A DNA stretch of 59,537 bases from a virus (IMGVR_UViG_3300042154_002141:1-59537), one strand, 5' to 3'. Positions 17,650-59,399 are shown, numbered from the stretch's first letter. The notes: generated from the sequence alone by a model not told the origin. Program-made: numbers and translations.

Positions 17650-17654
17650 GGCTT

Positions 17655-41345: not shown

Positions 41346-41600
41346 CAACTTATCGGTAGGTTTTTTATTCTCATTTCCCCTACCGATAACCGCAGAGGGC
41401 TTTGTTTACTTTCACCTCTGCCGAACCCCCCTAGATTGGTTGCTAGGGGGGTTCACCCTTTCTGGCCGGAAATTGAATAATTCGTGCTCCGCACAGCCAG
41501 AATAACTAAAACCTTTTTCAAAAGAAAAAGAACGCCGACCTCGACCCACGCTTGACTTGTCAGCCCAAACCGCTAGACTTGTATTATGGAAAGGAACACA

Positions 41601-41846
41601 ATGACTAAACCAACCAAAAAATCAGTTATGTATCTAACCCACGCAGACTACGAATGGCGTGGTATGGAGGAGGGCTGGCGAACAGATGTAATCTACCAAG
41701 ATGAAATGGGTCGCCAAACCGACTACTTCTACTCACCAGACGGAGTAGGTTGCTTGTGGGTAGACACGCTAGAAGAACTACTAACGAACTCGTATGACTA
41801 TGACGAGAACACACCAATCATTATTCTAAGACCAAAGGAGGACTAA
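41601..41846 (+). CDS. Hypothetical protein
   Basis: AAGGA RBS after module 1. Confidence 0.6.
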   Translation: MTKPTKKSVMYLTHADYEWRGMEEGWRTDVIYQDEMGRQTDYFYSPDGVGCLWVDTLEELLTNSYDYDENTPIIILRPKED

Positions 41847-42094
41847 TGAGTAGCAACTACCCAGAGGGTTCTATGCGTGGGTCTGGTATCTACGCACAGG
41901 AAGTTTCGTATGACGAGTTCGATTGCGAGAACGAGGAGTGCGAAAAAACCAACGAGGCAAGTCAAGCAACAACTGACGATTGGGGCAACTACTCTGTGGA
42001 ATGTGAGTTCTGCGGAGTAACCAACCGAGAGAGTAGCCTCGACCAAGACCGAGATGATTACTTCGCGGACTATGACCCGAATGACGAAAGGTAA
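41846..42094 (+). CDS. Acidic zinc-finger protein
   Basis: GGAGG RBS, C....C and CEFC. Confidence 0.6.
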   Translation: MSSNYPEGSMRGSGIYAQEVSYDEFDCENEECEKTNEASQATTDDWGNYSVECEFCGVTNRESSLDQDRDDYFADYDPNDER

Positions 42095-42494
42095 CAAAGT
42101 GAAAGCCAAAATCACAATCGTAATGGAATACGACACCGAGGACTTGTCCTTTATGATGGGAGAAGAAGTCAATGACGGAAACTTCCTTGAAGTCATAAAT
42201 GACAGGATTATCGAGGACATACTTGACGCATACCGACAAGGTGGCGTTGATGCCCTAGCAACAAAAATCAAACTAACCGAAAGTGAAAAAATGTCAAACA
42301 TCAAATACCCAGATGTAAAAGTAAAACTCACAGGCACAGACGGAAACGCCTTTGCGATTATGGGTGCTGTTCAAAAGGCACTCCGTAAGGCTGGCGTTCC
42401 ACAGACGGAACTTGACGAATACTACAAGGAAAGCACAAGTGGCGACTACGACCACTTGCTACAAACCGCTAGTCGTTGGGTCAAAGTTTCCTAA
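42054..42494 (+). CDS. Hypothetical phage protein
   Basis: C-terminal GTDGNAFAIMG..SGDYDHLL domain; start uncertain. Confidence 0.6.
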   Translation: MITSRTMTRMTKGNKVKAKITIVMEYDTEDLSFMMGEEVNDGNFLEVINDRIIEDILDAYRQGGVDALATKIKLTESEKMSNIKYPDVKVKLTGTDGNAFAIMGAVQKALRKAGVPQTELDEYYKESTSGDYDHLLQTASRWVKVS

Positions 42495-42700
42495 CCGATA
42501 GCCCGAATGGAGAAATCCGTTCGGGCTTTGGTTTGCCAGCGGAAATTGAATAATTGAGCTCCGCTCAAAACAGAATAATTAAAAACCTTTTTCAAAAGAA
42601 AAAAGTCGCGACCCTCCAAAGTTGGTATTGACAAATGTCGGTGCTGTGTGGTTAGATTGTTATGTGAGGCAAATAGACAATCTCACAAGGAGAAATACAA

Positions 42701-43021
42701 ATGAGCAATAACGAATTTCAGTTGCCAGACGACGCAGTATCTATCACTTCAAAAAAGGTGAAAGACGCTATCGCTGACTTTGTTCAGGCAAAGGCAGACG
42801 AAAAATCAGCAAAGGAACGCAAGGCACAAGCCGAGCAACTACTTCGCGAGGCTCTTGACAAGGCTGGCAAAAAGGTTGGCTATGTTGGCAAGACCAAAGC
42901 GTTCTCGTTGGTATCTAGCAAGAACACTTCGTTTGACCGAGAGATGTTGGAAACTATGTTTCCAGAGGCTTTCCAAGCCACTCTACGGACAACCGAATAC
43001 GACTACATCAGAACTGCGTAG
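42701..43021 (+). CDS. Hypothetical protein
   Basis: AAGGAG RBS after module 2. Confidence 0.7.
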   Translation: MSNNEFQLPDDAVSITSKKVKDAIADFVQAKADEKSAKERKAQAEQLLREALDKAGKKVGYVGKTKAFSLVSSKNTSFDREMLETMFPEAFQATLRTTEYDYIRTA

Positions 43022-43465
43022 TCGCACCCTCCACAACCTAAGCAAGTTGTAAAACTGCTTACCACCAAGACTTCGCCTTGTAAGTTCAACATTGAGGTAG
43101 TTTCCCCCCAAACTACATTATTCAGAGATGACATTGGCAAGTAACCTGAGCAAGTTAGAAAAAGGCTCTATTCATAGAAATCTCCTTTCTGTAAATAGTG
43201 TGTTGAGGTCGTCTACCGAGGCGTTATGCTTTCTCCTCGGTAGGCGACTAACGCCTTTGAGCGGAAATTGAAAATTGGGCTCCGCCCAAAACAGAATAAT
43301 TAAAACCTTTTTCAAAAAAGAAAAAGTCCGCCGACCTCAAACTTGTATTGACAAATGTCAGGGCTTTCGTTTAGACTTGACTTAGAACCGAGTGAGATAG
43401 AGTAAAGACCTCCCCCTCATTCACTCTCTCACTCGGTTCTACCTATCAACCAACTAGGAGAAAAA

Positions 43466-43621
43466 ATGGCAATCAATTACCGAAGAACTTTTCAGGGTGC
43501 GTGGGAACTTTACGCCTCCGACAAAAACGGATACTTAGTATCTCGTCAGTATTTCTTTTACACCAAGCGTGAGGCAACGCAGTTGTTTCGTGCGGAAATG
43601 AAGAAGATAAATAATGGCTAA
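43466..43621 (+). CDS. Small protein (51 aa), not in ORF track
   Basis: AGGAG RBS; MAINYRRTFQGAWELY. Confidence 0.6.
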   Translation: MAINYRRTFQGAWELYASDKNGYLVSRQYFFYTKREATQLFRAEMKKINNG

Positions 43622-43835
43622 TGTAGTTTTTATTCAAGACATAAATGGCGACACCATTGACGAAGTTCTCTACTGCTCTGACACCTGTGCCAAATCTGAT
43701 GTTTGGTATTCTGGCTGGTATGGCTGTATGGATAACTACACAACCCCGTTCTGCCCAAACTGCCAAACCGCTATGTATTGGACAGACGAAAACACAAACA
43801 CTCACTATCTAGGAAATGAGGAACAAAATGAGTGA
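43614..43835 (+). CDS. Small Cys-rich protein
   Basis: CSDTC, CPNC. Confidence 0.55.
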   Translation: MANVVFIQDINGDTIDEVLYCSDTCAKSDVWYSGWYGCMDNYTTPFCPNCQTAMYWTDENTNTHYLGNEEQNE

Positions 43836-44202
43836 AAAACTAGAAGTAAAAAAGAACTACGGAAGTATCATTATTCCGTTCGCTGTTGATGTAAGAGAGT
43901 TCTGGTCTTGCGTTCTCGGTAGTGGCTGGGAGGAAGGCTCTTGGTGGCAGAAGTGGAAATACAGCGAAGGCTCGGATTGGAACGAACCAGGGTTACTTAC
44001 GCTCTGGTGTGAGGACCCCGAAGATTACGACAAGTTCGTAAAGAAGGAACTCAACATTGATGACCTTGTTCGTGGCTACGCTCTCGCAATCAAAGACGAC
44101 TACCACCACTGCGGGGCAAAGATAGATTGGGAGGACTTGGACTTTTGTGGTTCAGACGCAATCCTTCAATACGCTTTCTTTGGAAAGTTAGTCTACGGAT
44201 AA
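43828..44202 (+). CDS. Hypothetical phage protein
   Basis: D...SDAILQYAFFGKLVYG C-terminus; GAGGA RBS. Confidence 0.65.
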   Translation: MSEKLEVKKNYGSIIIPFAVDVREFWSCVLGSGWEEGSWWQKWKYSEGSDWNEPGLLTLWCEDPEDYDKFVKKELNIDDLVRGYALAIKDDYHHCGAKIDWEDLDFCGSDAILQYAFFGKLVYG

Positions 44203-44401
44203 ACATTCAACGAACAACCCTCAACGAAAGTTGGGGGTTTTTCGTTGCTCGGCGGAAATTGAAATTAGTGCTCCGCACAAACAGAATAATTAAAAACTAT
44301 TTTCAGAAGAAAAAAGTCCGCCGACCCCTACTTGACTTGGAATACGGATTGTGGTTGAATTATTATGTGGATACAACCAACCACAGAAAGCAGAGGGCAT
44401 T

Positions 44402-44848
44402 ATGTCCGAACACGAAAACCCAGAAACACCAACCGAGGAAGTTTCTATTGAAACCCTACTCGCAAAGGTAGCCTCTCTTGAAAGCAACTTGGCTTACAAG
44501 ACCTCGCAGTTTGACCGAGCAATCGCAGACCGCAACGAACTCAAAAGCCAAATCACACAAGCCGAAAATCTTGTCGTTGAGGCTGTCAAGGAAGAAGTGC
44601 TTGACGGCGACAGCGAGTTTGTTACTAGCCTTGCTGAAATCTTTGAGTGGGAACTAACCGAAGAACACTCTGTCAAAATCATCATTGAAGTTACAGGAAC
44701 GATTACCACTCCGCTTGGTAAGTCGCTTGAAGGCTTGGAAGATGAGATTGAAGCCGAAATCTCGCTGTCGTATGACCGCCGAAATGACGGATACGACCTT
44801 GACCTTGACTACGGAACAGAAGTAGAAATCAAAGACCGAGGCTACTAA
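44402..44848 (+). CDS. Acidic hypothetical protein
   Basis: Follows module 4 promoter and leader. Confidence 0.65.
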   Translation: MSEHENPETPTEEVSIETLLAKVASLESNLAYKTSQFDRAIADRNELKSQITQAENLVVEAVKEEVLDGDSEFVTSLAEIFEWELTEEHSVKIIIEVTGTITTPLGKSLEGLEDEIEAEISLSYDRRNDGYDLDLDYGTEVEIKDRGY

Positions 44849-45039
44849 ACCGAACCAGAGCCACACCGAAAGGTGTGGTTTCTGGCTTTCTGGCCAAAAA
44901 TTGAAATTAGGGCTCCGCCCAGACAGAATAAGAAAAACTATTTTCAGAAGAAAAAAGTCCGACGAACCGCTCTTGACGAATGTCAGGCTATCGTGATAAC
45001 CTTGACCTGTGGATACAACCAGCCACAAGGGAGAACACT

Positions 45040-45429
45040 ATGTTATCTGAATACGAATACAACAAAATCATTGAGGCTCTTGGACACGCCGAGCGTAACT
45101 CTCACCCATTCAACCGTTCGTCTTGGCGAGAACTTGCCGAGCGAGCAAAAGCCGAACTTCCATACCTAATGTCGTCAAACGGAGGCAGTTGCCAATGTGA
45201 GGATAGACCCTGTTGCTCTTGCGACAGCGACACCTATCTAACTCCATACAACACCGAGGCAGACCCCGGTGATGTTGCGGACGCTTGGCGTGAGCGTATG
45301 GAGTATGACAATGATGATGATGATGAAGAAGTTTATTGTCACTATTGTAAGCAACTAATCGAAAGCGACAACGAAGATGAGTTGATGAATGGTTTTCACG
45401 ACTTATGCGGAGAAACTCGCGGAGAGTAG
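45040..45429 (+). CDS. Hypothetical protein
   Basis: GGGAG RBS; C.CED.PCC.C. Confidence 0.6.
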   Translation: MLSEYEYNKIIEALGHAERNSHPFNRSSWRELAERAKAELPYLMSSNGGSCQCEDRPCCSCDSDTYLTPYNTEADPGDVADAWRERMEYDNDDDDEEVYCHYCKQLIESDNEDELMNGFHDLCGETRGE

Positions 45430-45612
45430 TCAAGACCCTTAGCCGAAAGGCTAGGGGTTTTTCCGCTGGAAAATTGAAATTAGGGCTCCGCCCAGACAGA
45501 ATAAGAAAAGCATTTTCCAAAGAAAAAAGCTCGCGACCGACCCACGACTTGACTCAAGTCGCGAAGTGTGAAAGACTAGACTTACGGGACAATCCGTAGA
45601 ATGAGGGAACAA

Positions 45613-46116
45613 ATGACAGAGGAAACACAAGAATACAAGGCAACACTAACCAGCGACTGTGTCTGTGAAATCTATGACGAAGAAACAGGCGAGGCAAAGT
45701 TAGACGAGTACGGCTATCCAGAACGACCTGAATGGTGCTATGACTGTTATCGAGAAGAAGTCTTTCAGTTTTACGACAACTTCCTACCTATTTGGCTAGA
45801 ACGCCGAGGCTTGAAAGACGATGGCAAGGTTATGGTTATCGCTGAGAGTATTCGATGGAATCGTACAAACGGAGCAGGTTTCGTTGATGTGTCTGAAATC
45901 CACAAGGTTATGGAAATCGACGGTGACTTCAAGAACAAGTTTACTATCAAGGGTAACGAGTTGTATGCCGTTCGTTATTCTCACGATGAACCGACAGGGA
46001 CAGGCAGGTGGACATTCACGCCAGCCGAGTCTTGCTCGCAATGTGACGGAGGTATTCCTGCCGAAGTCTACGAAGACGAGAACGGTATCTGTGCCAACTG
46101 TAAGGAATACGAGTAG
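45613..46116 (+). CDS. Hypothetical protein
   Basis: GAGGG RBS; SHDEPTG; CxxC pairs. Confidence 0.65.
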   Translation: MTEETQEYKATLTSDCVCEIYDEETGEAKLDEYGYPERPEWCYDCYREEVFQFYDNFLPIWLERRGLKDDGKVMVIAESIRWNRTNGAGFVDVSEIHKVMEIDGDFKNKFTIKGNELYAVRYSHDEPTGTGRWTFTPAESCSQCDGGIPAEVYEDENGICANCKEYE

Positions 46117-46306
46117 TATTCAAGCCGAACCTCTCCGAAAGGAGAGGTGAGGCTGGCTGGCCGGAAATTGAATAATTTGAACTCCGTTCAAACAGAATAA
46201 GAAAAACAAACATCCAAAGAAAAAAGTCCGCCCGACCATACTTGACCGAGGTTGCCGTAAATGGTAACCTTGTAGTGTGGACACAACCAACCATAAGGAG
46301 ATAAAA

Positions 46307-46591
46307 ATGATGAACACTTCCGCAACCAATAAAACTTGGACACAAATCCAAAAGGCAAATCCTACTTGGTTTAGCCCAGAGTCAATGAAGTTTTGGCAAT
46401 CTATCGTCTACTTCGACACCCTAGCCAAGCACGACGACGGCTGGCGTTTTGTGTCAAGCGAAAAAAACTTTGACGGAACTAAAAACCTTTACACCGTCAG
46501 AGTTGCCACCAAACAAGGAATAGAAACTCTTGGCGAGTTTCAGGGATACACAACCCTGAAAGACGCAAAAGAGGCTTTGCTAATCCTCTAA
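46307..46591 (+). CDS. Hypothetical phage protein
   Basis: AAGGAG RBS; WFSPESMKFW..FVSSE. Confidence 0.65.
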   Translation: MMNTSATNKTWTQIQKANPTWFSPESMKFWQSIVYFDTLAKHDDGWRFVSSEKNFDGTKNLYTVRVATKQGIETLGEFQGYTTLKDAKEALLIL

Positions 46592-46796
46592 CCAAAGACC
46601 GCCTCAAGCCGAGCCTCCCCCCAATCCCTCGGCTTGAGGTTTTGGTGCGTGAAATTCTAAATTGCGCTCCGCGCAAACAGAATAATCAAAACCAGAAATC
46701 CAAAAAAAAAAAAAGAACGCGCCGCCTCTCTTGACAGATGTCAGGCAGAACCGCTAAACTGATTATGCGGACACAACCAACCGCGAAGGAGAAACT

Positions 46797-47105
46797 ATGC
46801 TTTCAGCAAGAAACCCAAATGAGTTACCAGACTTCGACTTGTCTCAAGAAGAAGTCAAGAACCTTGTTGCTCTCTGTGGAATTATGGCGATGACCATTCA
46901 CTACGGAGTAGACCCAGATGTTCCAGCAGACGCACTTCCAAAAGACATTGTGGAACACGGCGGAATGCTAGGCTTGATGATGAATGGCATTAGAGCCGCC
47001 GACAAGGCTGGCGAACTAGTCCACAACATTATCGAACGAGCCGAGAAAGCCGAAACCGACAAAGTCAACAAGGCGTTCGAGGAAATCGTAAGTCCGTCTG
47101 AATAA
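46797..47105 (+). CDS. Hypothetical protein
   Basis: AAGGAG RBS after module 8. Confidence 0.65.
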   Translation: MLSARNPNELPDFDLSQEEVKNLVALCGIMAMTIHYGVDPDVPADALPKDIVEHGGMLGLMMNGIRAADKAGELVHNIIERAEKAETDKVNKAFEEIVSPSE

Positions 47106-47459
47106 ACCACCCACCTGAGCAAGTGGCTAAACTGCTCACTACGAGCCAAGACAGTTTTCTAGAATGTGCTGAGACTTGGCGTCTGCTAGTAGACCGCAAT
47201 ACTAGCCGTTGGTAAGCGGAGTGAGGGCTTAGGAGCAATCCGAAGTTGAGACACGAAAAACTATCGCCAGCAGGGGCTATCTTCGGGTAGCCCCTGTGAC
47301 CTACCGCTGAAATTGAAATTCGCGCTCCGCGCAAGCAGAATAACTAAAAACCTTTTCAGAAGAAAAAAACGCCCGCGCCGACCTCTTGTGTTTGACAAGA
47401 CCGCGTAAGTGTGAAAGAATTATTATGCGGACACAACCAACCGCAGAAAGCAGGACACT

Positions 47460-47852
47460 ATGTCCCTAGATTGGAACGCAGAACGCGTCGCTAATTGGAG
47501 CGAAGGCACTGAGGAGTGGAAAGAAAGCGTTGCTTACTTTTGCTACGCACTTATGGCAATCGGAGTGAACAAGGTTACTAAGGAAAACTTAGGCGACATT
47601 TACACCCGTATCAAAATCTGGAACGCCCTTTACGGCCCCGTTCGTTACCGCTACGACGAGGAAACCAAAGTCAAGACTTCGCTCTATGACTACGACTTCC
47701 TACTAAGCGTAATCGGCTACGGAACCAACGTCAGCAACGAAACGTTCGGCCAATGGATAAAGCGTATCGGCAACCGCACCATTGAGGACAGCCAGCGTAA
47801 CTTCGCTAAATCGCTTGAAAAGGCCGAGGGAATAGAACCCGTCGCAGTATAG
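47460..47852 (+). CDS. Hypothetical protein
   Basis: AGGA RBS after module 9. Confidence 0.65.
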   Translation: MSLDWNAERVANWSEGTEEWKESVAYFCYALMAIGVNKVTKENLGDIYTRIKIWNALYGPVRYRYDEETKVKTSLYDYDFLLSVIGYGTNVSNETFGQWIKRIGNRTIEDSQRNFAKSLEKAEGIEPVAV

Positions 47853-48045
47853 CCAACGCCACCTAATCAGAAATGGTTAGGTGGCTTCGGCCATTCGCTG
47901 AAATTGAAATTAGCGCTCCGCGCAGACAGAATAACAAAACCCATTTTCAGAAGAAAAAGACCGCGACAAAATCGGTGTTTGACATACCGCACCGTCTGTG
48001 GAAGAATTGTAGTGTGGACACAACCAACCACAATAGGAGAAATCT

Positions 48046-48384
48046 ATGATTAGCAGATACAGCGAAATCCAATGCGACAGTTGTTCGGTCTTTCACGACG
48101 GCGACCCATTCGCTCTGGTGGAAATCAACGCAAGTATTCCAGAGGGCATCAAAGACTCACAGAAGGCTCGCGAACTGACTTACTTCTGGCTGTGCCGAGA
48201 TTGTAAAGAGGGCTACCCGAACGGTGCTACCGACTTCTTCATCAAGGAGTATTTCACCGAGGACTTGCTTTACCTTTGTAACTACTGTAACGAGTTCATT
48301 CCCGAAGATGTGCGTGACGCTTATGACGACACCGAGGTTTGCCTGACTTGCTCGCCACCGATTGAGGAGAGCGACAATGAGTAA
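48046..48384 (+). CDS. Cys-rich hypothetical protein
   Basis: AGGAG RBS; four CxxC. Confidence 0.65.
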   Translation: MISRYSEIQCDSCSVFHDGDPFALVEINASIPEGIKDSQKARELTYFWLCRDCKEGYPNGATDFFIKEYFTEDLLYLCNYCNEFIPEDVRDAYDDTEVCLTCSPPIEESDNE

Positions 48385-48544
48385 GCCCAAGACCGTCTAT
48401 GTCCTCGGTCGCAACTTCGCAATCATTGAAGTTGTTACCGACTCCGACTACGCCTATGAGTGGCTGGCTCACCCCAGCCGACCTAAGAAGGACGGGTTTT
48501 TTGTAAAAGAAGTCCTACTTGACGAATACCTCACCGCAAGGTGA
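48377..48544 (+). CDS. Small hypothetical protein
   Basis: GAGGAG RBS, overlap with upstream gene. Confidence 0.55.
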   Translation: MSKPKTVYVLGRNFAIIEVVTDSDYAYEWLAHPSRPKKDGFFVKEVLLDEYLTAR

Positions 48545-48708
48545 GGCTATTCGCCGTTCCGGAAATTGAAATTCGCGCTCCGCGCAAACAGAATAATTAA
48601 ATCAAGATATCCAAAAAGAAAACCGCGCCGGCAGCCACACTTGACCGCCGCACCCTGTCCGGCTAGACTGGACTTAGGGGAAGGCTTCCCCGGAAAAGAG
48701 GTGAGAAG

Positions 48709-48945
48709 ATGACCACGACACTAAGAAAAGCAAGAACCCTCGTAACCGCTATTGCCGTAGACCGCACCCAGGAGGACAGCGACTACCTACCAGAAGGCAA
48801 GGTTGTCCAACTAACTCTATCAACTCACGTTGAGAGAGGCGGGATTATCTCGTCAAGCGACACCGCTTTTTCGCTAGAAGAAACGATTGAACTAATCGCA
48901 AAACTTTCTTCGGCGTTAGAGAAAGCAACAACTTTCACCGAGTAA
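48709..48945 (+). CDS. Hypothetical protein
   Basis: GAGGTG RBS after module 11. Confidence 0.6.
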   Translation: MTTTLRKARTLVTAIAVDRTQEDSDYLPEGKVVQLTLSTHVERGGIISSSDTAFSLEETIELIAKLSSALEKATTFTE

Positions 48946-49138
48946 CCAAAGACCAGCCAGCTGCTTTCAGCAGGTGGCTGGTTTGGTTCGCTGCCGGAAA
49001 TTGAATTAGCGCTCCGCGCATACAAAATAATTAAAACCGGAATCCAAAAAAGAAAACCGCGCCCCGGGGGTTCTTGACATACCTAGCCATCTGTGAAAGG
49101 ATTGAGGTGTGGATACAACCAGCCACACAGGAGAAATA

Positions 49139-49513
49139 ATGAAGAAAGCACTAGTAGTCCAGACCGACGGAAAATCGGAAATCGTTGAATTCAACAACGA
49201 CAACTCACTCGCAGTTTTACAGAAAGCCGTTGATGGTTTGATACAGCCCGTAGATGTTCGACCACCGAACCTAACTATGTGGTGTAACGAGGAAGGCTTA
49301 TTCCGCAACGACTTCACCGAAAACTTTATGGCAACTGCCATTTACGAAGATGCCGTTGGCGTAGAGAACCAATGTATCCTCGGTCCTGTCGTCTTTACAG
49401 GCGGAACAGACCCAGAGGGATACACCGAAGGTTTGAATGACCAAATGCTAGAACTAGTAATGCGAATGGCAGAAGTCCAGCGACAAGCACTCGAACAACT
49501 TTACAAGGAATAG
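49139..49513 (+). CDS. DUF3846-like protein
   Basis: LQKAVDGLIQ, MWCNEEG, N.MAT, ILGPVVFTG..G.TEGL. Confidence 0.7.
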   Translation: MKKALVVQTDGKSEIVEFNNDNSLAVLQKAVDGLIQPVDVRPPNLTMWCNEEGLFRNDFTENFMATAIYEDAVGVENQCILGPVVFTGGTDPEGYTEGLNDQMLELVMRMAEVQRQALEQLYKE

Positions 49514-49697
49514 CCAAGAGCGACCTGCCCGAAAGGGTAGGTCGTTTGGCATTTGAAAATTGAAAATTGAGCTCCGCTCAAACAGAATAAAAGAACCCTT
49601 CTCAGAAAAAAAAGTCGCCGCGGTCAGCCTACTTGACTAACCTCACTATCTATGAAAGACTTAGAGAGCGGATACAACCAACCGCAGAGGAGAACCT

Positions 49698-50285
49698 ATG
49701 TTTGATGTCTACAAAGCACGAACCCACTTCCTAGACGACAGCGTTGATAGCATACCAACGCACAGAGTTTTGGAAACGCCAGCCGATAACAAAATCCTTA
49801 TGCCCTCGCAGTTTGTCAAGTATGACTACCCAAAGCCGAGAGATTACGGACAAATCGGCGGATACAGCAAAACCGCCGAACCACTAAAAATCGCTCTTGT
49901 TGATAACGACTACGAGTGGAGGGTTGCTGTTGAGAATTGGATAGATAGCGATTTGTTCATTCGTCAGCCGTTCGGTCTGGAAGAACTTATCCGCAGACCG
50001 AGAGCCGAGCGAGGTAGATACCGACTTCACTACGCTAGGTTTGTGTTGCCAAGCGACAACTACCGCGGAGTGCCTAGTTGGAGTAAGTATTGGTCTGATT
50101 ACTTCTTTGCCTACTACTTCAACAGAAATGGTGAGCGACTATTCATTCACGAAACCGTCGTGGAGGTTGCTTTCAATGATGCCCCTATCTCTTGGCACAA
50201 CAGCAAGCGAGCCTACACCATTCCGCAGGATTGGCTGACCAATCGCATAGACGAGAACAGGCACAAATACGACTTGTTCGCCTAG
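49698..50285 (+). CDS. Hypothetical protein
   Basis: GAGGAG RBS after module 13. Confidence 0.65.
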   Translation: MFDVYKARTHFLDDSVDSIPTHRVLETPADNKILMPSQFVKYDYPKPRDYGQIGGYSKTAEPLKIALVDNDYEWRVAVENWIDSDLFIRQPFGLEELIRRPRAERGRYRLHYARFVLPSDNYRGVPSWSKYWSDYFFAYYFNRNGERLFIHETVVEVAFNDAPISWHNSKRAYTIPQDWLTNRIDENRHKYDLFA

Positions 50286-50474
50286 CACCGAGAGCCTAGC
50301 CCGAAAGGGTTAGGCTTTTCGGCGTGCCGTGAAATTGAAATTTGAGCTCCGCTCAAACAGAATAAGAAACCCCTGAATCCAAAGAAAAAGCCGCCGCGGC
50401 TCGGTTCTTGACTTATGTCAGGCTGGCGTGATAACCTAGGTATGCGGATACAACCAATCCGTAAGGAGATAAAA

Positions 50475-50831
50475 ATGACCACACCCAAAAAACAAGAAGG
50501 CATTGACGAAGTGTTGCTTGCCGTTAGTGAGTTTATCGCCAATGGCGGAACGCTCACCGCTGAAAACTTTGACGACTTCGCGAAGTCATTTGAGCCAAAG
50601 CCAAATCCGTATCTTGAGTATTCGCTAGACACACTTCGCGAAGTATCTAGGATTTACACTTCCTCAATGGATTTAGGTAAGACGATTGTCGTTGATGAAG
50701 TGGAATACACCTACGCCGAGGCTCTTGCTTTTGTTGATGACGCAATCGCTCACCGACAAGAAACCGACTTTTGTCCCCACGATTGGTTTATTCACCAAGA
50801 AGGTCTGTGCGGCTATTGTGAAAGCGAGTAG
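50475..50831 (+). CDS. Hypothetical protein
   Basis: AAGGAG RBS after module 14. Confidence 0.65.
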   Translation: MTTPKKQEGIDEVLLAVSEFIANGGTLTAENFDDFAKSFEPKPNPYLEYSLDTLREVSRIYTSSMDLGKTIVVDEVEYTYAEALAFVDDAIAHRQETDFCPHDWFIHQEGLCGYCESE

Positions 50832-51037
50832 ACGAGAGAGCCAGCCGAAAGGTTGGCTCTTTCTTCGTGCCGGGAAATTGAAATTGGAGCTCCGCTCAAA
50901 CAGAATAACAAAACCAGGAATCCAAAAAAGAAAATCCGCCGCGGTCGCTTAGTATTTGACTTGGCTGCCCCAATCGTGATAGGCTCGTAGTGTCCAGCCC
51001 GCAAGGGGAAGCCTCTAACAAATCGAGAGGAGGAGAA

Positions 51038-51238
51038 ATGACCAAGTTTGTTTTTGCGAAAGCACAAGGCGAAGGTTTTCTCCGAGTAGATAAGAACGAG
51101 TTCAAATTCGTTACTGCCTACCGAGCATTTGCCAAGCACAACGATTTCGTCTGGTTAGACGAATACGACGCCAGCGACTTTCTAGTTGAGTTGCGTCAGC
51201 GTGGAGTGAAGTTTGAAGTAGTTCAGACCGCTCTCTAA
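51038..51238 (+). CDS. Hypothetical protein
   Basis: GGAGGAG RBS. Confidence 0.6.
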   Translation: MTKFVFAKAQGEGFLRVDKNEFKFVTAYRAFAKHNDFVWLDEYDASDFLVELRQRGVKFEVVQTAL

Positions 51239-51299
51239 GTTCCACAACCCGAGCAAGTTGTAAAAAGGCTCACCACAACCAAGAAGAAAAGAGAAACAA

Positions 51300-51449
51300 A
51301 TGGCAACGATAATCCATACTCTCGCTATGCTTTCAGGAGATACCACCGTTCCGGCGGACTTGCTTTCTGAAAACGCCGAGTTGGTAAAAATGGTTTCAGA
51401 TGGAAAATCATACAGAGAACTCTTAGAGTTCATCAACGAAAATTGGTAA
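51300..51449 (+). CDS. Small protein (49 aa), not in ORF track
   Basis: MATIIHTLAMLSG..FINENW, followed by terminator. Confidence 0.5.
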   Translation: MATIIHTLAMLSGDTTVPADLLSENAELVKMVSDGKSYRELLEFINENW

Positions 51450-51628
51450 TCACTGCCCCCTAACTTCGGTTAGGGGGTTTTTCGTTGAAATTGAAATTTG
51501 AGCTCCGCTCAAACAGAATAAGAAAACCAGGAATCCAAAAAGAGAAACCGACGCGACCATCCTTGACTTGTCTTGCGATGTGCCGTAGACTTGAAGAGCG
51601 GAGCCAACCAATCCGCAAGGAGAAACAG

Positions 51629-51916
51629 ATGAACCACGAAATTATCGACACTTGGTATGAGTCAACCAACGACTACCGAGCCGCTTGTAGTTGCGGAGCA
51701 ATCTTCGCTAACGATGCTAGAAATAGTCTAGAGCACATCATCGCCGTAGTCAAAAGTGAACTTTCTCTTGCTACCGACTTCTACAAGTCAATGGCACTAG
51801 ACGATGACCTAGATGCCAACTACCGCCAGACTCAGTTTGAGACTGCTTGCGACATCACCGACCGCGTGTTCAATAAAGAAGAAGGCACTACACTCGACGA
51901 GCACCGAGACGAGTAA
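51629..51916 (+). CDS. Hypothetical protein
   Basis: AAGGAG RBS after module 16. Confidence 0.65.
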   Translation: MNHEIIDTWYESTNDYRAACSCGAIFANDARNSLEHIIAVVKSELSLATDFYKSMALDDDLDANYRQTQFETACDITDRVFNKEEGTTLDEHRDE

Positions 51917-52118
51917 AAGACCACCTAGCCCTGCTACTTGAAGGAAGTAGTGGGGCTAGGTTCTTGCGGCCGGAAATTGAAATTTGAGCTCCGCTCAAAC
52001 AGAATAAGAAACCCCTGAATCCAAAGAAAAAGCCGGCGACGCTGCGGTGTTTGACTCGGCTCACCCGACAGCGTAGACTGGAAGAGCGGACACAACCAGC
52101 CGCAAGGAGAAGATACAA

Positions 52119-52418
52119 ATGTCCACCAAAACGACATTTTCAGACCTAACTGAAAACCCACCGAAGAACGCCGACAAGGTTGCCTATCTTGCCGAATGGT
52201 CTACCAACTACGACGCACGAAAAGGAACGCCGTTTATGTTGTTCCTCGACCTAATCGGTTTCAGCGAAGAGTATTTTGGCACTACGCAGACCACCATTCA
52301 CAGCGAGATTACTGGCTTTCTTGAGGCAGGACTAATTGGCGAAGCACTTGTCCAGTTTTCCGACCACCCGCAAGATGTAGTGAACTACTGCCAGCAACTT
52401 GTAAACGCCGAGCAGTAA
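52119..52418 (+). CDS. Hypothetical protein
   Basis: AAGGAG RBS after module 17. Confidence 0.65.
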   Translation: MSTKTTFSDLTENPPKNADKVAYLAEWSTNYDARKGTPFMLFLDLIGFSEEYFGTTQTTIHSEITGFLEAGLIGEALVQFSDHPQDVVNYCQQLVNAEQ

Positions 52419-52621
52419 CCCCAAGACCGCCCTGCCACTTTCCCCCAAGTGGCAGGGCTCTCGGCGTGCGGCCGAAAATTGAAATTGAGCTCCGCTCAAA
52501 CAGAATAATTTTCTTTTGTTGTCCAAAGAAAAAAGCCCGCGGTGACCTCCTTGACCAATGTCACCCTGTTCGGCTAAACTGAAAGAGCGGAGCCGACAAA
52601 TCCGCAAGGAGAAAACACCAG

Positions 52622-52894
52622 ATGAACGATGACAACACTACCCAAACAGAGCGGAACGCCGTCTTTGCTGTGGAGGCTCTAGCCGAGGTCTTCGGCAGAG
52701 AACTCCGCTCGTACGAGTACGACTTCTTTCTCGTCAAGTGCTTCAACCACCCAGAGATTGACCCACTTGCGACCAAGTGCCTCACCGAGCCTGTCCACTA
52801 CGCGGAGCAGAACTTTGAGAACCTTCAAGCAAAACTCCGCGAGTTGTTTCTTATCCGCCGACCGAACAGCGACCCAGAGACTCCGCCGTTCTAG
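52622..52894 (+). CDS. Hypothetical protein ending DPETPPF
   Basis: AAGGAG RBS after module 18. Confidence 0.6.
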   Translation: MNDDNTTQTERNAVFAVEALAEVFGRELRSYEYDFFLVKCFNHPEIDPLATKCLTEPVHYAEQNFENLQAKLRELFLIRRPNSDPETPPF

Positions 52895-53422
52895 CCAAGA
52901 CCGCCCTGCCACTTCCCCCGAGTGGCAGGGTTTTGGTTTGCTCGGTGGAAATTCAATTTGGGCTCCGCCCACGCAGAATAACTTTGCACCCCGTTCTCGC
53001 TCGGTTCGCAAGCTGCCGCGATCTTTGCGGCTCGATAGCTGAACGCTCCTTCGTCGCTTTTCAGCCTCGCCGCTGCAGACGCCGGCAGCGCGCTCACCTC
53101 TCGCTCGGCTCCCCGGCTGCCGCGATCCTCCCAGGCTGCGAGCTGCCCGGCTTCGCTTCGCTCAGACAGGGCAGCGCCTTGCCTGGCTCGGACGCTGGCG
53201 GCCGGCTCGCTTGTCGCCGGACTGCGTACCGAAATTGAAATTCGCACTCCGTGCAAACAGAATAACTTTCTTCGTTCTCTGAAGAAAAAAGCGCCGACCC
53301 TGCCGTTCTTGACTTATCTCACCATCTATGGCAGACTAGACTTACAACTGAATAGCGAGGCTCGCTACCCCCCAAGGCGAGCCTCGCACCACCCATCTGT
53401 TCACGAACAAAGGAAAATCCTT

Positions 53423-53710
53423 ATGCTCAAATACATACCAATCAGTTTCGTTACTATCGTTTGCTGGTCGCTAGCGACTATCACGCAGAACGGAGTAACC
53501 CGATACTCCGTCATTGGCGACCTAGAAAGTGCCGAACGCCTACTAGGTGCTATGTGGCTATTCACTGCCGCAAGTCTACTTATGTTCGCCACTCTCGCCC
53601 TAATGCTTGTGTTCGACCTACGCCGAAAGTCAGCCTATCCAATGGAAGTCTGCTCAAGCGAATGCGACAAGAAGTGTGCGGACAACAACCACTACGAGTG
53701 GAACAACTAA
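53423..53710 (+). CDS. Membrane protein
   Basis: AAGGA RBS; two hydrophobic helices. Confidence 0.6.
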   Translation: MLKYIPISFVTIVCWSLATITQNGVTRYSVIGDLESAERLLGAMWLFTAASLLMFATLALMLVFDLRRKSAYPMEVCSSECDKKCADNNHYEWNN

Positions 53711-53915
53711 CCACCGACCACCTAGCCCTGTCTATTCCCCCAATAGGCAGGGCTAGGCTTTTGTGGCCGAAAATTGAATTCGAGCTCCGCTCAAACAGAA
53801 TAAAAAGACCTTGTTCTCCAAAGAAAAAAGCCGCGCCGTTCCCTGTTCTTGACTTACTTCACCAAATCCCGTAGACTGAAAGTGCGGAGCCAACCAATCC
53901 GCAAGGAGAAATAAG

Positions 53916-54245
53916 ATGAACGAAAAGCCCGAAGTTACTCTTGACGAACTACGAGAGAACCTAAACAACAACCCACAATTCGACATTGACCTAGCCCAAA
54001 CGCAAGTGTGGCTAATCGGCAAAGATGTCGAACGCTCGGTAGCGGATGCGGTAAACCAACTAGAAATCGGGACACTTGCCACCGAGAAGTTAGCCGACAT
54101 TGTAAAAATCCAACTACCGACCCTGAAAAAAGTTGTTGAACTTATGTCGTTAGTTGCCTTCTACGACAGCTCAATCGGCAAACCATTTATGACCAGCGTT
54201 CTTCAACGCAATCTTGTTCAGCACAGGGTAGTCAGCGAAGATTAG
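53916..54245 (+). CDS. Hypothetical protein
   Basis: AAGGAG RBS after module 21. Confidence 0.65.
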   Translation: MNEKPEVTLDELRENLNNNPQFDIDLAQTQVWLIGKDVERSVADAVNQLEIGTLATEKLADIVKIQLPTLKKVVELMSLVAFYDSSIGKPFMTSVLQRNLVQHRVVSED

Positions 54246-54439
54246 CCGAACCACCGAGAGCCTAGCCGAAAGGTTAGGTTCTCGGTCTGCGGCCGAAAAT
54301 TGAATTCGCGCTCCGCGCAAACAGAATAAAAGAACCCTTCACCCAAAGAAAAAAGCCGCGCCGTTTCCCGTTCTTGACTTATCTCACCCGTTCCTGTAAA
54401 CTGAAAATGCGGGTAAGACCAACCCGTAAGGAGAAGATT

Positions 54440-54775
54440 ATGTCCAAATACACGCCCGAACAGGAAAAGGAAATGGTGAACAACGCCGTTTTTGACCTAC
54501 TCACTCTTTTAGAGCGAGAAGTTTTGGAATACAACAAGAGTTTCGCAGACTACTTTGTTGAACTTGTTGAGAAGAACGACACTGAGAAGCTGAAAGAAGT
54601 TGCCCTTGTTTTTGCCAAAGGCGTAAAGCAAGACGCAGACCTACACGAAATCACCACCGCCGTAGTTGCTAATGGCAAACTATCGCTACGCAACGCACTC
54701 GCTATGGCGGATTGGCAACTACAAAGCCAAATCACCGAACGCCACTACGACACCTACTTAGCCCACTTAGGCTAA
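54440..54775 (+). CDS. Hypothetical protein
   Basis: AAGGAG RBS after module 22. Confidence 0.65.
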   Translation: MSKYTPEQEKEMVNNAVFDLLTLLEREVLEYNKSFADYFVELVEKNDTEKLKEVALVFAKGVKQDADLHEITTAVVANGKLSLRNALAMADWQLQSQITERHYDTYLAHLG

Positions 54776-54934
54776 CCAGACCCCTAGCCCTGCTACTTAT
54801 CCCCCAAGTAGCAGGGTTAGGCTTTTGCGGCCGGAAATTGAATTTGCGCTCCGCGCAGACAGAATAACAATTTATTACATTCCGACTCCCCCACCCTTGC
54901 GCCGTCTCACTTAGCACACACAACCACAAGCACG

Positions 54935-55174
54935 GTGTATCATATATACATGAAAAACAATCTTCCAGCCCACGTCAAAGAGTCCATCGACAACGTCATT
55001 GCCCTGCACGATCGATACCTGTCCGGTACCCTAAATCTCAAAGCACTTAGTCCGGTAGCCCTGATCGACCTTGAAAGAGATTTCCAGGTAGCCGACAAAC
55101 ACTTGGACTACATCGACTTACGCGGCCTGTCGGACCTCAGGCAGCTGATCCTGTCCGCCGCTACCAGTATCTAA
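54935..55174 (+). CDS. Hypothetical protein
   Basis: ORF track. Confidence 0.45.
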   Translation: MYHIYMKNNLPAHVKESIDNVIALHDRYLSGTLNLKALSPVALIDLERDFQVADKHLDYIDLRGLSDLRQLILSAATSI

Positions 55175-55335: not shown

Positions 55336-56007
55336 ATGAAAAGGTTACTAACGATTGGAGCACTGGTACTGCTCTTGGCCTCATGTAGCACAGCTACATC
55401 AGTCCAACCAGCCAGCGCCGCAATTAAACCAACACCAATACAACTGAATATCGAAAATGCGCTGTCGAAGAGCACGCCCTTATCTTCGGTCCTCCACGGA
55501 TCTATAGTCAAGGCTAAGAAACTTCAGCAACAGCAGCGCACAGTCCAAAAGCAATTCGCCAACAAAGGCAAGATCGCTACCCTAGTCAAGAAGGTAACGA
55601 AGTACAAGAACAAGACATGGTATGTCTTCTCCGGTTCTTCTCCTCGAGGCTGGGACTGCTCTGGTCTCGTGCGGTGGGCCTATGGACAAGTGGGAGTAAC
55701 ACTCGACCACTCTGCTACTCGACAAATGCGCTCAGGCAAAGTTGTCAAGCAGCCGATGGTCGGAGACATTGTTGCCTTCTACTACGGAAGTGGTAAACGA
55801 TCTTTCCACGTCGGTATCTATACCGGCAATGGCAAGATGATCCACGCCTACTACGCAGGTACTCGTACCCGTATAGATTCCGTAGCCGGTGTTGCTAAAG
55901 CAAACTGGGCCAAAGTCAAGTACGTCCGAATCTTGGACACCTTGCCAGAGGATCAGCAGACCTTTGCAATGAAACATGGGCAACTAGCTAAGGTGGAACA
56001 GCCATAG
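55336..56007 (+). CDS. NlpC/P60 cell-wall peptidase, secreted/lipoprotein
   Basis: LASC lipobox; YVFSG..P.GWDCSGLV, GDIVAF, HVGIY.GNGKMIHA. Confidence 0.9.
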   Translation: MKRLLTIGALVLLLASCSTATSVQPASAAIKPTPIQLNIENALSKSTPLSSVLHGSIVKAKKLQQQQRTVQKQFANKGKIATLVKKVTKYKNKTWYVFSGSSPRGWDCSGLVRWAYGQVGVTLDHSATRQMRSGKVVKQPMVGDIVAFYYGSGKRSFHVGIYTGNGKMIHAYYAGTRTRIDSVAGVAKANWAKVKYVRILDTLPEDQQTFAMKHGQLAKVEQP

Positions 56008-57191: not shown

Positions 57192-57397
57192 GCCGTTGCG
57201 CGCACGCACGCAGCCGGCAGGACTGGAGTTGAACTTTTTGTGTCTATTCAATAAAGAATCTAACTTCAAGTCAGCTATCGCTCCTACTCGAGCTTCGACT
57301 ATCGTCGAGGACATTCGTCCCGCTCTCGTAAAAGCAATCACTGCCTTGCAGGCACAGCCTGTATCACTAAATATACACATGACTGGAGTTGAACTCG

Positions 57398-58798
57398 ATG
57401 GCTAAAAGCCTGATGGAACAGATATCTTTGATGAGCCCAGAGCAGCAGGCTCTTGCCTTACAAGGCATGGACCCTGATATCCTGCTCTGGGACTGGTCAG
57501 TCTGGGGCAGGCCTGAGCAGCAGGCACCTGAAGGTGACTGGGCCATATGGGCATACATCGCTGGTCGTGGTGCTGGCAAGACCAGGACTGCTGCTGAGTG
57601 GGTAAGAGAGCAGGCCAAGTACACAACAGAGGGACAGCGTCGCTTCGCCCTTGTTGCTCGTACAGCAGCAGATGTTCGTGACGTTATTGTTGAAGGTGAG
57701 TCTGGCATTATGAATGTGACTCCTCCTAGTGAACGCCCACTCTATGAACCTTCCAAGAGAAGGTTGACCTGGCCCAATGGCAACACTGCCACCTGCTTCA
57801 CAGCAGACGAGCCTGACTCACTTCGTGGTCCTCAGTTCACTCACGCCTGGGGCGATGAGATTGCTGCCTGGCGTCAGACCCCTGACGCAGCAGGCATGAC
57901 TGCTTTTGACAACCTTCGTGTTGGTACTCGTCTTGGTAGTCACCCAAAGATTATGGTGACCACTACACCCAAGAGAGTACCTCTGCTCTACAAACTCATC
58001 GAGGAATCTAAGACAGGTCGAGTAGTTATCACTCGTGGTTCTACTCTCGACAACTCAGGTAACCTATCAGGTGCCTACCTCGACGCCATCACTGGCGTCT
58101 ACGCAGGCACACGCCTGGCTGCCCAGGAACTCTATGGTGAGATGCTTGATGATGTCGAAGGAGCCCTCTGGACAGAGGAGCTCATCGAACAATATCGAGC
58201 ATCGTTCATGCCTCAAGGCACTCCACTTCGTATCATTGGAGTGGACCCATCAGTGGCAGAGAACCCACGTGATGAGTGTGGCATTGTTGTCTGTGCTGCC
58301 ACATCAGACAGGGACCTCTACAAGAGGCAGGCCTGGGTCCTGGAAGATGCTTCCATCCTTGGCTCTCCAGAGAAGTGGGCTAACGAAGTTGTTCGTATGG
58401 CCCGGAAGTGGGGCTGTCCTGTTGTAGCAGAAGTGAATCAGGGTGGAGCCCTGGTTCGCAATGCTATCAATGCTATCGACCCCAACATCAAAGTGTTGGA
58501 GGTCCATAGCAAGCATGGTAAAGCACTTCGTGCTGAGCCTGTGACCCTTGCTTATGAGCAAGGTCGTGTTCACCACGTTGGCTACCTTCCTGACTTGGAA
58601 AGTCAGATGTACTCCTGGGTACCAGGAGAAGGTAAATCACCAGACAGAGTAGATGCTATGGTCCACGCTATGACTGCCTTACTTATCAAGCCTCCAATGG
58701 GATTCTCTGGAGGAAAGATTACTGCTCGCTCCATGGGAGCTCGCAGAATCGATAATGGCAAGCCTAATCGTGGTGGAGGCTTCTTTCGCGTTCGCTAA
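57398..58798 (+). CDS. terL: Terminase large subunit
   Basis: AGRGAGKT Walker A, LRGPQF..AWGDE, TTTP, GVDPS, EVNQGG, SPDRVDA. Confidence 0.93.
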   Translation: MAKSLMEQISLMSPEQQALALQGMDPDILLWDWSVWGRPEQQAPEGDWAIWAYIAGRGAGKTRTAAEWVREQAKYTTEGQRRFALVARTAADVRDVIVEGESGIMNVTPPSERPLYEPSKRRLTWPNGNTATCFTADEPDSLRGPQFTHAWGDEIAAWRQTPDAAGMTAFDNLRVGTRLGSHPKIMVTTTPKRVPLLYKLIEESKTGRVVITRGSTLDNSGNLSGAYLDAITGVYAGTRLAAQELYGEMLDDVEGALWTEELIEQYRASFMPQGTPLRIIGVDPSVAENPRDECGIVVCAATSDRDLYKRQAWVLEDASILGSPEKWANEVVRMARKWGCPVVAEVNQGGALVRNAINAIDPNIKVLEVHSKHGKALRAEPVTLAYEQGRVHHVGYLPDLESQMYSWVPGEGKSPDRVDAMVHAMTALLIKPPMGFSGGKITARSMGARRIDNGKPNRGGGFFRVR

Positions 58799-58997
58799 AG
58801 CCTCCCACACTTATATAACTGGAGTTGAACTTTAGTCACGCAGTATCAGGCTTCGCCTGATGCTCGCTGGTCGCTCGCTGAGACTTCGCTTCGCTCAGGC
58901 TCTTTTTATTTCTCGCCAAAGGCTCGAAAGGTCTTTGTCTGTGCTACGCACATACTAAGACTGGAGTTGAACCTAGCCGATACCTAAACCGATACAA

Positions 58998-59260: not shown

Positions 59261-59399
59261 TTACTACTCCTTTGGTTGTGGCTTGTCTGGGTGACTTGCC
59301 TAAGGCAAGTCTAATGCCTATTCAACAATCAAGTCAAGTCTATTTGGTAACGATTTGATAACGCTGGCTAATCCGTCTACCTAATCCGTCTAACACTTT

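Follow-up and report, generated by a model that had tools for sequence, protein, structure and literature searches.

Covarying DNA mini-hairpins at the heads of small-gene cassettes in a lake-water phage of actinobacteria

The DNA analyzed here, IMG/VR record IMGVR_UViG_3300042154_002141, is a single contig of 59,537 bases (analyzed whole, and called the window below). It covers part of a larger phage genome, by comparison with complete relatives about 45% of one of roughly 135 kb. Ahead of its gene for the large terminase subunit lies an array of small genes, which we call cassettes, each preceded by a conserved upstream region, the head, and the first third of each head is a short module that contains a DNA hairpin. 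The 23 modules are all on the plus strand between 41469 and 54867 (Table 1), and a preliminary description of the window had proposed that they are promoters for an RNA polymerase encoded by the phage, of the kind known from coliphage N4. The phage is a large, uncultured one from lake water and its host group is the actinobacteria. Its gene order is that of Actinomycetia phage DSL-LC01: ribonucleotide reductase, an 890-residue minus-strand open reading frame (ORF), AAA ATPase, VWA protein, small genes and terminase.

Anatomy of the cassette heads and their hairpins

In each module, (G/A)AAATT(G/C)AA is followed after 2-5 nucleotides (nt) by the hairpin, in which TCC separates the two complementary arms of a 4-bp stem, and then, after 3-4 nt, by CA(G/A)AATAA. 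Six stem variants occur among the 23 copies (GAGC x8, GCGC x7, GGGC x4, GTGC x2, and GAAC and GCAC once each), exactly the numbers given in the preliminary description, and C-TCC-G is invariant with no mispaired stem (0/23). Pairs were counted after aligning the 23 copies without gaps (alignment A1, with 20 distinct rows). Pair 9-17 takes four forms (CG 8, AU 7, GC 3, UA 2) and pair 10-16 two (GC 18, AU 2), with no unpaired row at either, and pairs 8-18 and 11-15 do not vary. None of 500 column shuffles reached the covariation score or the paired fraction of the real alignment, and when the 3' arm was slid by 1-3 columns only 9-46% of the cells paired, down from 89%. The earlier claim that structure is selected stands, as one position takes four pair types and no stem is unpaired, and the hairpin is real and under selection.

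The minus strand reads C-GGA-G in all 23 copies, as had been described. This is the template strand of the cassettes, and it carries the core GCGGAGC in 21 of the 23, the remaining two having an A:T second pair. The window hairpins have the make-up of a DNA mini-hairpin, in which two G:C pairs enclose a G-N-A or G-NN-A loop; GCGNAGC and GCGNNAGC are described as the two classes of extraordinarily stable DNA mini-hairpin (PMC13037366, partial text). Perfect stems, as measured in the 21 copies of the NNGC type, are 4 bp long in 11 copies, 5 bp in two, 6 bp in five and 7 bp in three. When the whole window was searched for NNGC-T(N1-2)C-GCNN, 24 hairpins were found on the plus strand vs. one on the minus strand, well in excess of chance; 22 of the 24 are inside the array and two are in the ~45 kb outside it. 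The plus-strand terminators of the heads, unlike the mini-hairpins, carry RNA-type GAAA (GNRA) loops. Because the loop rule fixes letters 1 and 3, leaves the middle free and requires two G:C pairs, and because real terminators at the same loci have GNRA loops, we read the mini-hairpin as a DNA-level element, mainly on the template strand of the cassettes.

A scan against Rfam returned nothing above chance, and no tRNAs were found. The attC sites of integrons are imperfect hairpins of 57-141 nt with paired boxes, located beside a tyrosine integrase. We rejected this identity for the window hairpins, which differ in being short (11-17 nt) and perfect, and no integrase was present among the scanned ORFs, which included a short Recombinase-domain match at 14800-15489.

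The complete head runs from an intrinsic terminator through the AT-rich leader with the hairpin, a TTGAC-N17-TAGACT promoter, a stem-loop in the 5' untranslated region (5'UTR) and a ribosome site to an orphan gene. Downstream of CAGAATAA there is an A-rich stretch ending in AAAGAAAAAAG, followed by 14-22 G+C-rich letters and then TTGACn, which in 21 of the 23 heads begins 41-49 nt past the module (the exceptions are modules 19 and 23). A TAGACT/AAGAAT/TAAACT box is found 17-18 nt past TTGAC, and then the second stem-loop, AAGGAGA and ATG. The hairpin keeps its place relative to this promoter: of 21 window copies, 20 have the loop centre 58-67 nt upstream of the -35-like box, and in the other hairpin-bearing contigs described below the distance is mostly 50-67 nt. 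A consensus scan gave 35 promoter-like sites, compared with 11.4 +/- 2.7 in shuffles, and plus-strand intrinsic terminators are located directly upstream of the heads, many with the GAAA loop. As each head has its own host-type promoter and terminator, every cassette is expected to be its own transcription unit.

Family assignments were sought for the ten largest ORFs, nine in cassettes and one (55336-56007) past the last head. Eight of the ten have no Pfam family and five have no PHROG; of the other two, one is a DUF3846 protein and ORF 55336-56007 is an NlpC/P60 peptidase. Many cassette ORFs have no match in the relatives.

Table 1. Coordinates of the array, its modules, one fully annotated head and the large proteins of relatives referred to in the text (window positions unless a contig is named)
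Feature	Coordinates	Strand	Remarks
Array of 23 cassette heads and small genes	41469..54867	+	all rightward; ends 2.5 kb before large terminase
Module 1	41469..41505	+	stem GTGC/GCAC, hairpin 41484-41494
Module 2	42542..42578	+	stem GAGC/GCTC, hairpin 42556-42566, spacer +1 nt
Module 3	43264..43299	+	stem GGGC/GCCC, hairpin 43277-43287, spacer +1 nt
Module 4	44255..44289	+	stem GTGC/GCAC, hairpin 44268-44278
Module 5	44897..44931	+	stem GGGC/GCCC, hairpin 44910-44920; left partner in natural one-cassette deletion
Module 6	45470..45504	+	stem GGGC/GCCC, hairpin 45483-45493; right partner in natural one-cassette deletion
Module 7	46164..46200	+	stem GAAC/GTTC, 7 bp via TTT/AAA, hairpin 46179-46189
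Module 8	46651..46685	+	GAAATTCTA variant, stem GCGC/GCGC, hairpin 46664-46674
Module 9	47309..47343	+	stem GCGC/GCGC, hairpin 47322-47332
Module 10	47900..47934	+	stem GCGC/GCGC, hairpin 47913-47923
Module 11	48562..48596	+	stem GCGC/GCGC, hairpin 48575-48585
Module 12	48997..49030	+	stem GCGC/GCGC, hairpin 49009-49019; CAAAATAA variant
Module 13	49556..49590	+	stem GAGC/GCTC, hairpin 49569-49579
Module 14	50331..50365	+	stem GAGC/GCTC, hairpin 50344-50354
Module 15	50874..50908	+	stem GAGC/GCTC, hairpin 50887-50897
Module 16	51487..51521	+	stem GAGC/GCTC, 7 bp with TTT/AAA, hairpin 51500-51510
Module 17	51973..52007	+	stem GAGC/GCTC, hairpin 51986-51996
Module 18	52475..52508	+	stem GAGC/GCTC, hairpin 52487-52497
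Module 19	52948..52981	+	stem GGGC/GCCC, hairpin 52960-52970; without TTGAC promoter, then GC-rich non-coding element
Module 20	53231..53265	+	stem GCAC/GTGC, hairpin 53244-53254
Module 21	53770..53803	+	stem GAGC/GCTC, hairpin 53782-53792
Module 22	54296..54329	+	stem GCGC/GCGC, hairpin 54308-54318
Module 23	54834..54867	+	stem GCGC/GCGC, hairpin 54846-54856; then -10-only, leaderless-looking start, no TTGAC
Cassette 16 head: preceding cassette's intrinsic terminator with T-run	51455..51486	+	terminator scan
Cassette 16 head: host-type promoter TTGACT-17-TAGACT	51563..51591	+	promoter scan and sequence
Cassette 16 head: 5'UTR stem-loop GCGGAGCCAACCAATCCGC, AAGGAGA, ATG at 51629	51598..51631	+	sequence read directly
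Large terminase subunit	57389..58798	+	anchor for finding relatives
Giant ORF, L082 (DSL-LC01)	7801-17670		
Giant ORF, L092	2676-15863		
Giant ORFs, G001	57113-66820 and 67250-85198		
Giant ORFs, G002	100770-110537 and 111129-123491		

Several further features of the heads deserve mention. The second stem-loop (e.g., GCGGACACAACCAACCGC; 51598-51616) is located directly past the -10 box, where the mRNA is predicted to begin, ~30 nt before the start codons, and reads GCGGA(C/T)ACAACCAACCGC followed by AAGGAGA, its stem covarying between GCGG/CCGC and GTGG/CCAC; it is likely an RNA stabilizer or translational control site common to most cassettes. In heads 1-5, 9 and 10 (e.g., 44296-44312) the A-rich part contains an inverted repeat, TTTTC-AGAA-GAAAA or CTTTTTC-AAAA-GAAAAAG, the former occurring six times. 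Module 19 is followed by a G+C-rich non-coding element (52982-53230) in place of promoter and gene, with an internal repeat GCTGCCGCGATC..GC(G/T)..CGA(T/G)AGCTG; similar text follows a head in the contigs L003, L006 and L011, and the element has no match in Rfam. The last head is followed by GGTGTATCATATATACATG (54868-54937), where a -10-like box stands beside the start codon in what looks, from its layout, like a leaderless mRNA start, and the same arrangement follows the last hairpin of L010.

Distribution of the hairpin among related phages

The terminase of the window is 77% identical to that of DSL-LC01 (129 kb), 61% to those of Microbacterium phages (~190 kb) and 47% to those of Gordonia phages. 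Relatives of it are encoded by 432 IMG/VR contigs, four of which are 135-137 kb long and have terminal repeats, and the comparison of heads took in 80 loci around such terminase genes. The array was present in 24 metagenome runs, from lake water. Nucleotide searches of a phage collection with the window gave no match, and the exact module pattern had 0 matches among viral contigs; a looser pattern had at least 120 single, scattered matches in metagenome contigs, which we take to be chance. At the edges of the record there are collagen-like sequences: a tail-fibre ORF of 1494 residues runs off the start (1-4482, minus strand) and a (GGGCTT)n reading frame enters from the end (59340-59537, minus strand). 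As contigs L002, L003 and L004 likewise end 0.8-2 kb past the terminase gene, the window boundaries are probably assembly breaks in repeats.

Heads are recognizable in many of the 80 loci, and the distribution of the hairpin among them is patchy. Contigs G006, G007 and G008 (terminase 89-91% identical, contigs 38-43% complete) have 22, 25 and 32 array hairpins, respectively, of the form NNGC-T(N1-2)C-GCNN, all within the 13-16 kb array before the terminase gene, and their totals on the plus vs. minus strand are 23 v 4, 26 v 1 and 32 v 2. The array and its strand are thus the same as in the window, but the surroundings of the hairpin are not: the flanks are AAAATAAAAATTTG...CAAAAATAAAA in G006 and G008 and C/A-rich in G007, and when the hairpins of the four contigs (21+22+25+32) are aligned on the loop, only GC-T.C-GC is common to them, with all four bases represented at the middle loop letter. 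Among the relatives as a whole, the template-strand cores are GCG(A/C/G/T)AGC and GCGATAGC, and in G007 and G008 a head often has two or three hairpins in tandem.

Closer to the window, L002 (terminase 98% identical) has loops of TTC and of the four-letter TATC; the latter reads GCGATAGC on the template strand, which places it in the other mini-hairpin class, GCGNNAGC. Of the heads in L003 (terminase 97%), seven have T-N-C loops, four have a flipped loop, reading GAA on the plus strand, and one has a different loop. Where heads of L002 and L003 could be matched to window heads through their downstream genes (78-93% DNA identity), the stem letters differ at 10 of 13, always in both arms, and the loops differ as well. 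Head hairpins overall number ~118 with the G-N-A loop on the template strand vs. four flipped.

No such array was found in G009 (terminase 96%), G010 (91%), the complete genomes G001 and G002, DSL-LC01 or the cultured Microbacterium phage A3Wally. There is one hairpin in 28 kb of G009; in two complete relatives of 135 kb that lack the array, the plus strand has 4-5 and the minus strand three, and A3Wally has one on the plus and two on the minus strand in 27 kb, all within annotated coding ranges. The sequences upstream of G009 genes could be aligned to 13 window heads, and in four of these alignments a single clean gap of 10-13 nt coincides exactly with the hairpin, the remaining ones being noisy or not orthologous. 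By these comparisons among relatives, the hairpin is a discrete and fast-evolving insert in an otherwise alignable A/T-rich leader. Since the G006/G008-type hairpin string is confined to those two contigs, no complete hairpin-bearing genome was found. DSL-LC01 has a different head, repeated ~17 times (L001 30200-43330; GATTCTAAAGATGTTATAATAGAATC), in which an extended -10 promoter lies within an inverted repeat and is followed by ACGACGAAAGGAC before start codons.

The hairpin as part of a recombining head

The heads resemble the PeSL (promoter-early stem-loop) elements of T4-type phages, which are repeated units that combine a host-type promoter with an AT-rich region, a stem-loop and a ribosome site (PMC2839356, partial text), and whose cassettes have been described as recombining head to head (PMC2839356, PMC4122927, both partial texts). 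As in those phages, repeated composite heads of ~100 nt flank orphan genes in a plastic region, and cassettes are deleted and reordered by recombination between heads. For instance, in one contig of sequencing run X13 position 44896 is followed directly by 45470, so that 573 nt are missing, and the two sides have 40 letters in common; the junction removes exactly one cassette, between two identical heads. In L003 the cassette order differs from that of the window at at least three places. There are also differences, as the host and phage lineages are not the same and there is no sequence relation, and the PeSL stem-loop is an RNA terminator, whereas here the GAAA-loop terminator is separate and the mini-hairpin is an extra, DNA-type element.

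The interpretation toward which we lean, tentatively and on comparative sequence evidence, is that these are PeSL-like early cassette heads for the host polymerase with an accessory, extrudable mini-hairpin on the template strand that acts in cis. Each module would form the upstream portion of a regulatory head that is repeated before early cassettes of mostly orphan genes, and each cassette would be transcribed separately by the host RNA polymerase from a strong sigma-A-type promoter (TTGACn-N17-TAGACT-like). The logic of the head would be that of the PeSL cassettes of T4-type phages, with repeated heads doubling as recombination points at which cassettes are added, deleted and reordered. Into the A/T-rich leader, ~60 nt before the -35 box, a GCGNAGC-class mini-hairpin (with two G:C pairs and a sheared G.A triloop) would have been inserted, and selection would have favored it because it can extrude from the duplex when the DNA is negatively supercoiled; there it may bind a structure-specific protein, or act as a switch or insulator that responds to DNA topology. 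We infer this extrusion and any effect of it on transcription, and we do not think that the hairpin is a stand-alone promoter. The window also encodes a WhiB domain fused to a WhiA-type/sigma-region-4-like helix-turn-helix (17119-17649; 35-41% identity, kept in all relatives compared), which fits with dependence on the host polymerase.

Selection on a DNA-level hairpin in a double-stranded genome is rarely so clear, with more than 100 copies in four contigs holding to the GCGNAGC rule on one strand while their surroundings drift. As the known readers of the motif are a phage RNA polymerase and primases, and it here stands before host-type promoters, there would be either a new reader or a regulatory device based on extrusion by supercoiling. 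The array also extends cassette shuffling of the PeSL style from T4-type phages to freshwater actinobacterial phages, and the natural heads with and without a hairpin make its role directly testable.

Several points weigh against a cis-acting, extrudable hairpin in host-transcribed heads. Perfect arms might in part be due to template-switch correction of quasi-palindromes, and not to selection. The hairpin-free relatives keep the same heads, hence the hairpin is dispensable for head function, and the distance between hairpin and -35 box varies continuously by ~9 nt, which makes contact with the polymerase on one face of the helix unlikely. If the role were purely that of a cruciform, no strand bias would be expected, yet the counts are the ~118 vs. 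four given above. In the sequencing-run search with the stretch 45000-54900, no RNA run matched, only DNA contigs. Lastly, nearest-neighbour folding gave -4.0 to -5.5 kcal/mol, equal on both strands, with z-scores of -0.07 to -3.6. These energies do not settle the hairpin question, as the parameters omit the special stability of GNA loops; nearest-neighbour models are described as missing that of the mini-hairpin motif (PMC13037366).

The best-surviving alternative, which we regard as possible but unlikely, is that the hairpin is a recombination element or selfish palindrome with no role in expression, which spreads by gene conversion and raises recombination between heads, for instance by stalling replication or being cut as a small cruciform, with cassette turnover as the result. 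The presence of the hairpin is all-or-none per genome (all 23 window heads as opposed to the single hairpin of G009), its gain or loss is clean in the four of 13 alignments described above, and the loop type is uniform within a genome and differs between genomes (TCC in the window, TTC/TATC in L002). The precise deletion of one cassette and the changes in cassette order between relatives are also in its favor, and the PeSL authors speculated that the stem-loop is possibly the target of a recombination protein (PMC2839356). However, under neutral spread it is unexplained that >100 copies in four diverged contigs all keep the first and third loop letters and both closing G:C pairs, with drift in the stems and the middle letter, and neutral spread does not account for the strand bias. 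Moreover, heads recombine without such a hairpin in T4-type phages and in the lineage of the hairpin-free relatives, and the crossover of the X13 junction can be placed only within the 40 shared letters and is not pinned to the hairpin.

Other phages that infect actinobacteria also have arrays of short sites: the stoperators of cluster A mycobacteriophages and the inverted repeats of Streptomyces phage phiC31 are many, conserved, intergenic and oriented with transcription, and are linked to early-gene control. Those sites are sequence-specific duplex operators for a repressor, and are not known to have covarying stems or a G-N-A loop rule.

Comparison with N4 promoters and other readings

The preliminary description had taken the hairpins for promoters of the N4 type, in which a hairpin extruded on the template strand is read by a phage-encoded, possibly virion-carried RNA polymerase, with the start at GAATAA. 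The three hairpin promoters of N4 lie within the leftmost tenth of the genome; their extrusion at physiological supercoiling requires the closing pair and the loop 5'G and 3'A, and the polymerase reads -11A/G, -10G, -8G and +1C (PMC4496689, partial text). Within the window the likeness to N4 promoters P1-P3 is considerable. The hairpin is on the template strand with a 3-nt G-purine-A loop, and by analogy its C:G closing pair, loop 5'G and loop 3'A are the same features as the N4 extrusion determinants (PMC4496689); the core GCGGAGC is the one named for the N4 promoter (PMC13037366). The contact positions are occupied as in N4 (-11G and -10G in 23/23, -8G in 21/23, template +1C in 20/23), and as in N4 the hairpins are so small that extrusion by supercoiling requires a special loop. 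The earlier count of 11 nt from the central loop base was also correct, reaching G in 20 of the 23 copies, with two copies off register by a spacer 1 nt longer and one by CAAAATAA.

This geometry is not kept in the relatives. The base at +11 in the three other hairpin contigs is A12/T6/C2/G1, C7/G6/A8/T1 and A20/T9/C1/G1, and that at -11 is often a pyrimidine (loops TGC, TAC). Because -9C, -10G, -12A and -8G also stabilize the mini-hairpin, most of the match to N4 can be explained by shared physical chemistry. There are further differences. The stems of N4 promoters are 5-7 bp, whereas here they are often only 4 bp; N4 manages with three promoters at one genome end and a polymerase of 3500 residues, in contrast to 23-32 copies here and a polymerase that was not found; and each copy here lies ~60 nt before a host-type promoter.

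The search for a polymerase is in agreement with the claim of the preliminary description that none is encoded in the window, as ORF and family searches of the 59.5-kb record found no such gene. Nor is there an unexplained window ORF of polymerase size, none exceeding 350 residues apart from the 890-residue protein, which we rejected as a hidden polymerase as it resembles rhamnose-binding lectins and carbohydrate-binding modules. When the search was extended to five near-complete relatives, PF00940 and the N4 polymerase domain were each detected in 0/5, by tests that are weak given that the family control likewise matched no genome. The annotation of DSL-LC01 lists no polymerase, and the available part of the paper describing that phage mentions neither repeats nor a polymerase. 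None of the large ORFs unique to hairpin-bearing contigs is polymerase-like, and the only ORFs found in all three hairpin contigs and absent from three complete hairpin-free genomes encode ThyX and an M23 peptidase. As the window is only ~45% of the genome, absence of a polymerase from this phage is not demonstrable.

We regard as improbable the possibility that these are N4-style promoters from which each cassette is transcribed early by an unrecognized polymerase of the phage. Such an enzyme might be part of one of the giant proteins (2824-5983 residues; Table 1) whose genes lie beside or after the portal gene in DSL-LC01 and complete relatives. In its favor, beyond the core and contact positions, are the strand bias, which fits a template-strand signal, an invariant loop among varying stems in the window, as for a protein that reads the loop, and module 19, which has no host-type promoter and yet is upstream of a conserved non-coding element. 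The giant proteins are themselves unexplained, being poorly conserved and nearly without annotation, and the window genome is incomplete. The evidence on the other side is broader: 21 of the 23 heads already have a strong host-type promoter, four of 12 L003 heads have the loop flipped, G007 and G008 have their tandem hairpins, and G009 has matching heads with no hairpin. In addition, the giant proteins lack the long shared core that would be expected of an essential polymerase; they share a ~300-residue N-terminal block and repeated DRAT-like ADP-ribosyltransferase domains. The one in DSL-LC01 had no Pfam, PHROG or PDB sequence match and no close relatives by peptide patterns. The giant proteins may be ejected host-takeover proteins. 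If the N4-type reading were true, hairpin-promoter transcription would no longer be confined to the N4 family: it would extend to a Gram-positive host, with 23-32 copies per genome in place of three. Literature searches found no description of such hairpin arrays.

It is also doubtful, slightly more so than an N4-type promoter, that the module is a second, upstream host-type promoter (TTGAAA, 16-18 nt, CAGAAT) that is shut off when the hairpin in its spacer extrudes. Sixteen of the 23 modules are promoter-like (9/12 letters, spacer 16-18), with the same score as many of the downstream TTGACT promoters, and insertion of the hairpin creates the 17-nt spacing, there being ~8 nt between the boxes in a hairpin-free relative. 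Nonetheless, seven modules are outside the 16-18 spacing, it is ~20 nt in L003, and G006, G007 and G008 retain the hairpin but have no such boxes in its flanks. The T with which the -10 consensus begins is missing from CAGAAT, and such a promoter has no evident use 75 nt upstream of a stronger one.

An antisense terminator or insulator, where the minus-strand hairpin and a T-rich run would stop leftward transcription entering from the right, has still less to commend it. By a loose consensus scan 15 of the 23 module hairpins are terminator-like on the minus strand, and in G006 and G008 stems are 6-10 bp with an average of 8.2-8.4 T in the next 10 nt. Against this, the tail averages 2.0 T per 10 nt in G007 and 5.2 in the window, where 11 of 21 stems are 4 bp; the loops obey the DNA rule G-N-A, unlike the GNRA of the plus-strand terminators; and a scan placed four minus-strand promoter-like sites in the array, none of them at heads. 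We thus rejected the minus-strand hairpin as an intrinsic terminator, which consists of a G+C-rich stem and a U-run, on the basis of its short stems and weak T tails.

Mini-hairpins of the GCGNAGC and GCGNNAGC classes are also described as marking primase sites, in the phage G4 origin and plasmid ssiA, where the hairpin marks a single-stranded DNA site (PMC13037366). The core motif and strand specificity are the same here, but G4 and ssiA have single sites at replication origins, unlike these promoter-proximal arrays in a double-stranded phage genome. By this analogy the hairpins could be single-strand signals for DNA synthesis or end processing (primase starts or stalling sites for a host exonuclease), to which the strand bias and single orientation would suit as to any replication- or end-linked process, but which we consider very improbable, as the hairpins are confined to a fixed place in the heads of a 13-16 kb array (two in the other 45 kb) and tied to a promoter ~60 nt away.

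Lastly, mini-hairpins also occur outside heads. In L005 and L008, where the cassette heads have no hairpins, there are nine (10124-11063) and at least three (11440-11530), respectively, past the terminase gene, and the non-coding stretch at the same place in the window (58800-58990) contains extra C-TTC-G and C-TAC-G mini-hairpins together with a direct repeat, ACTGGAGTTGAAC.

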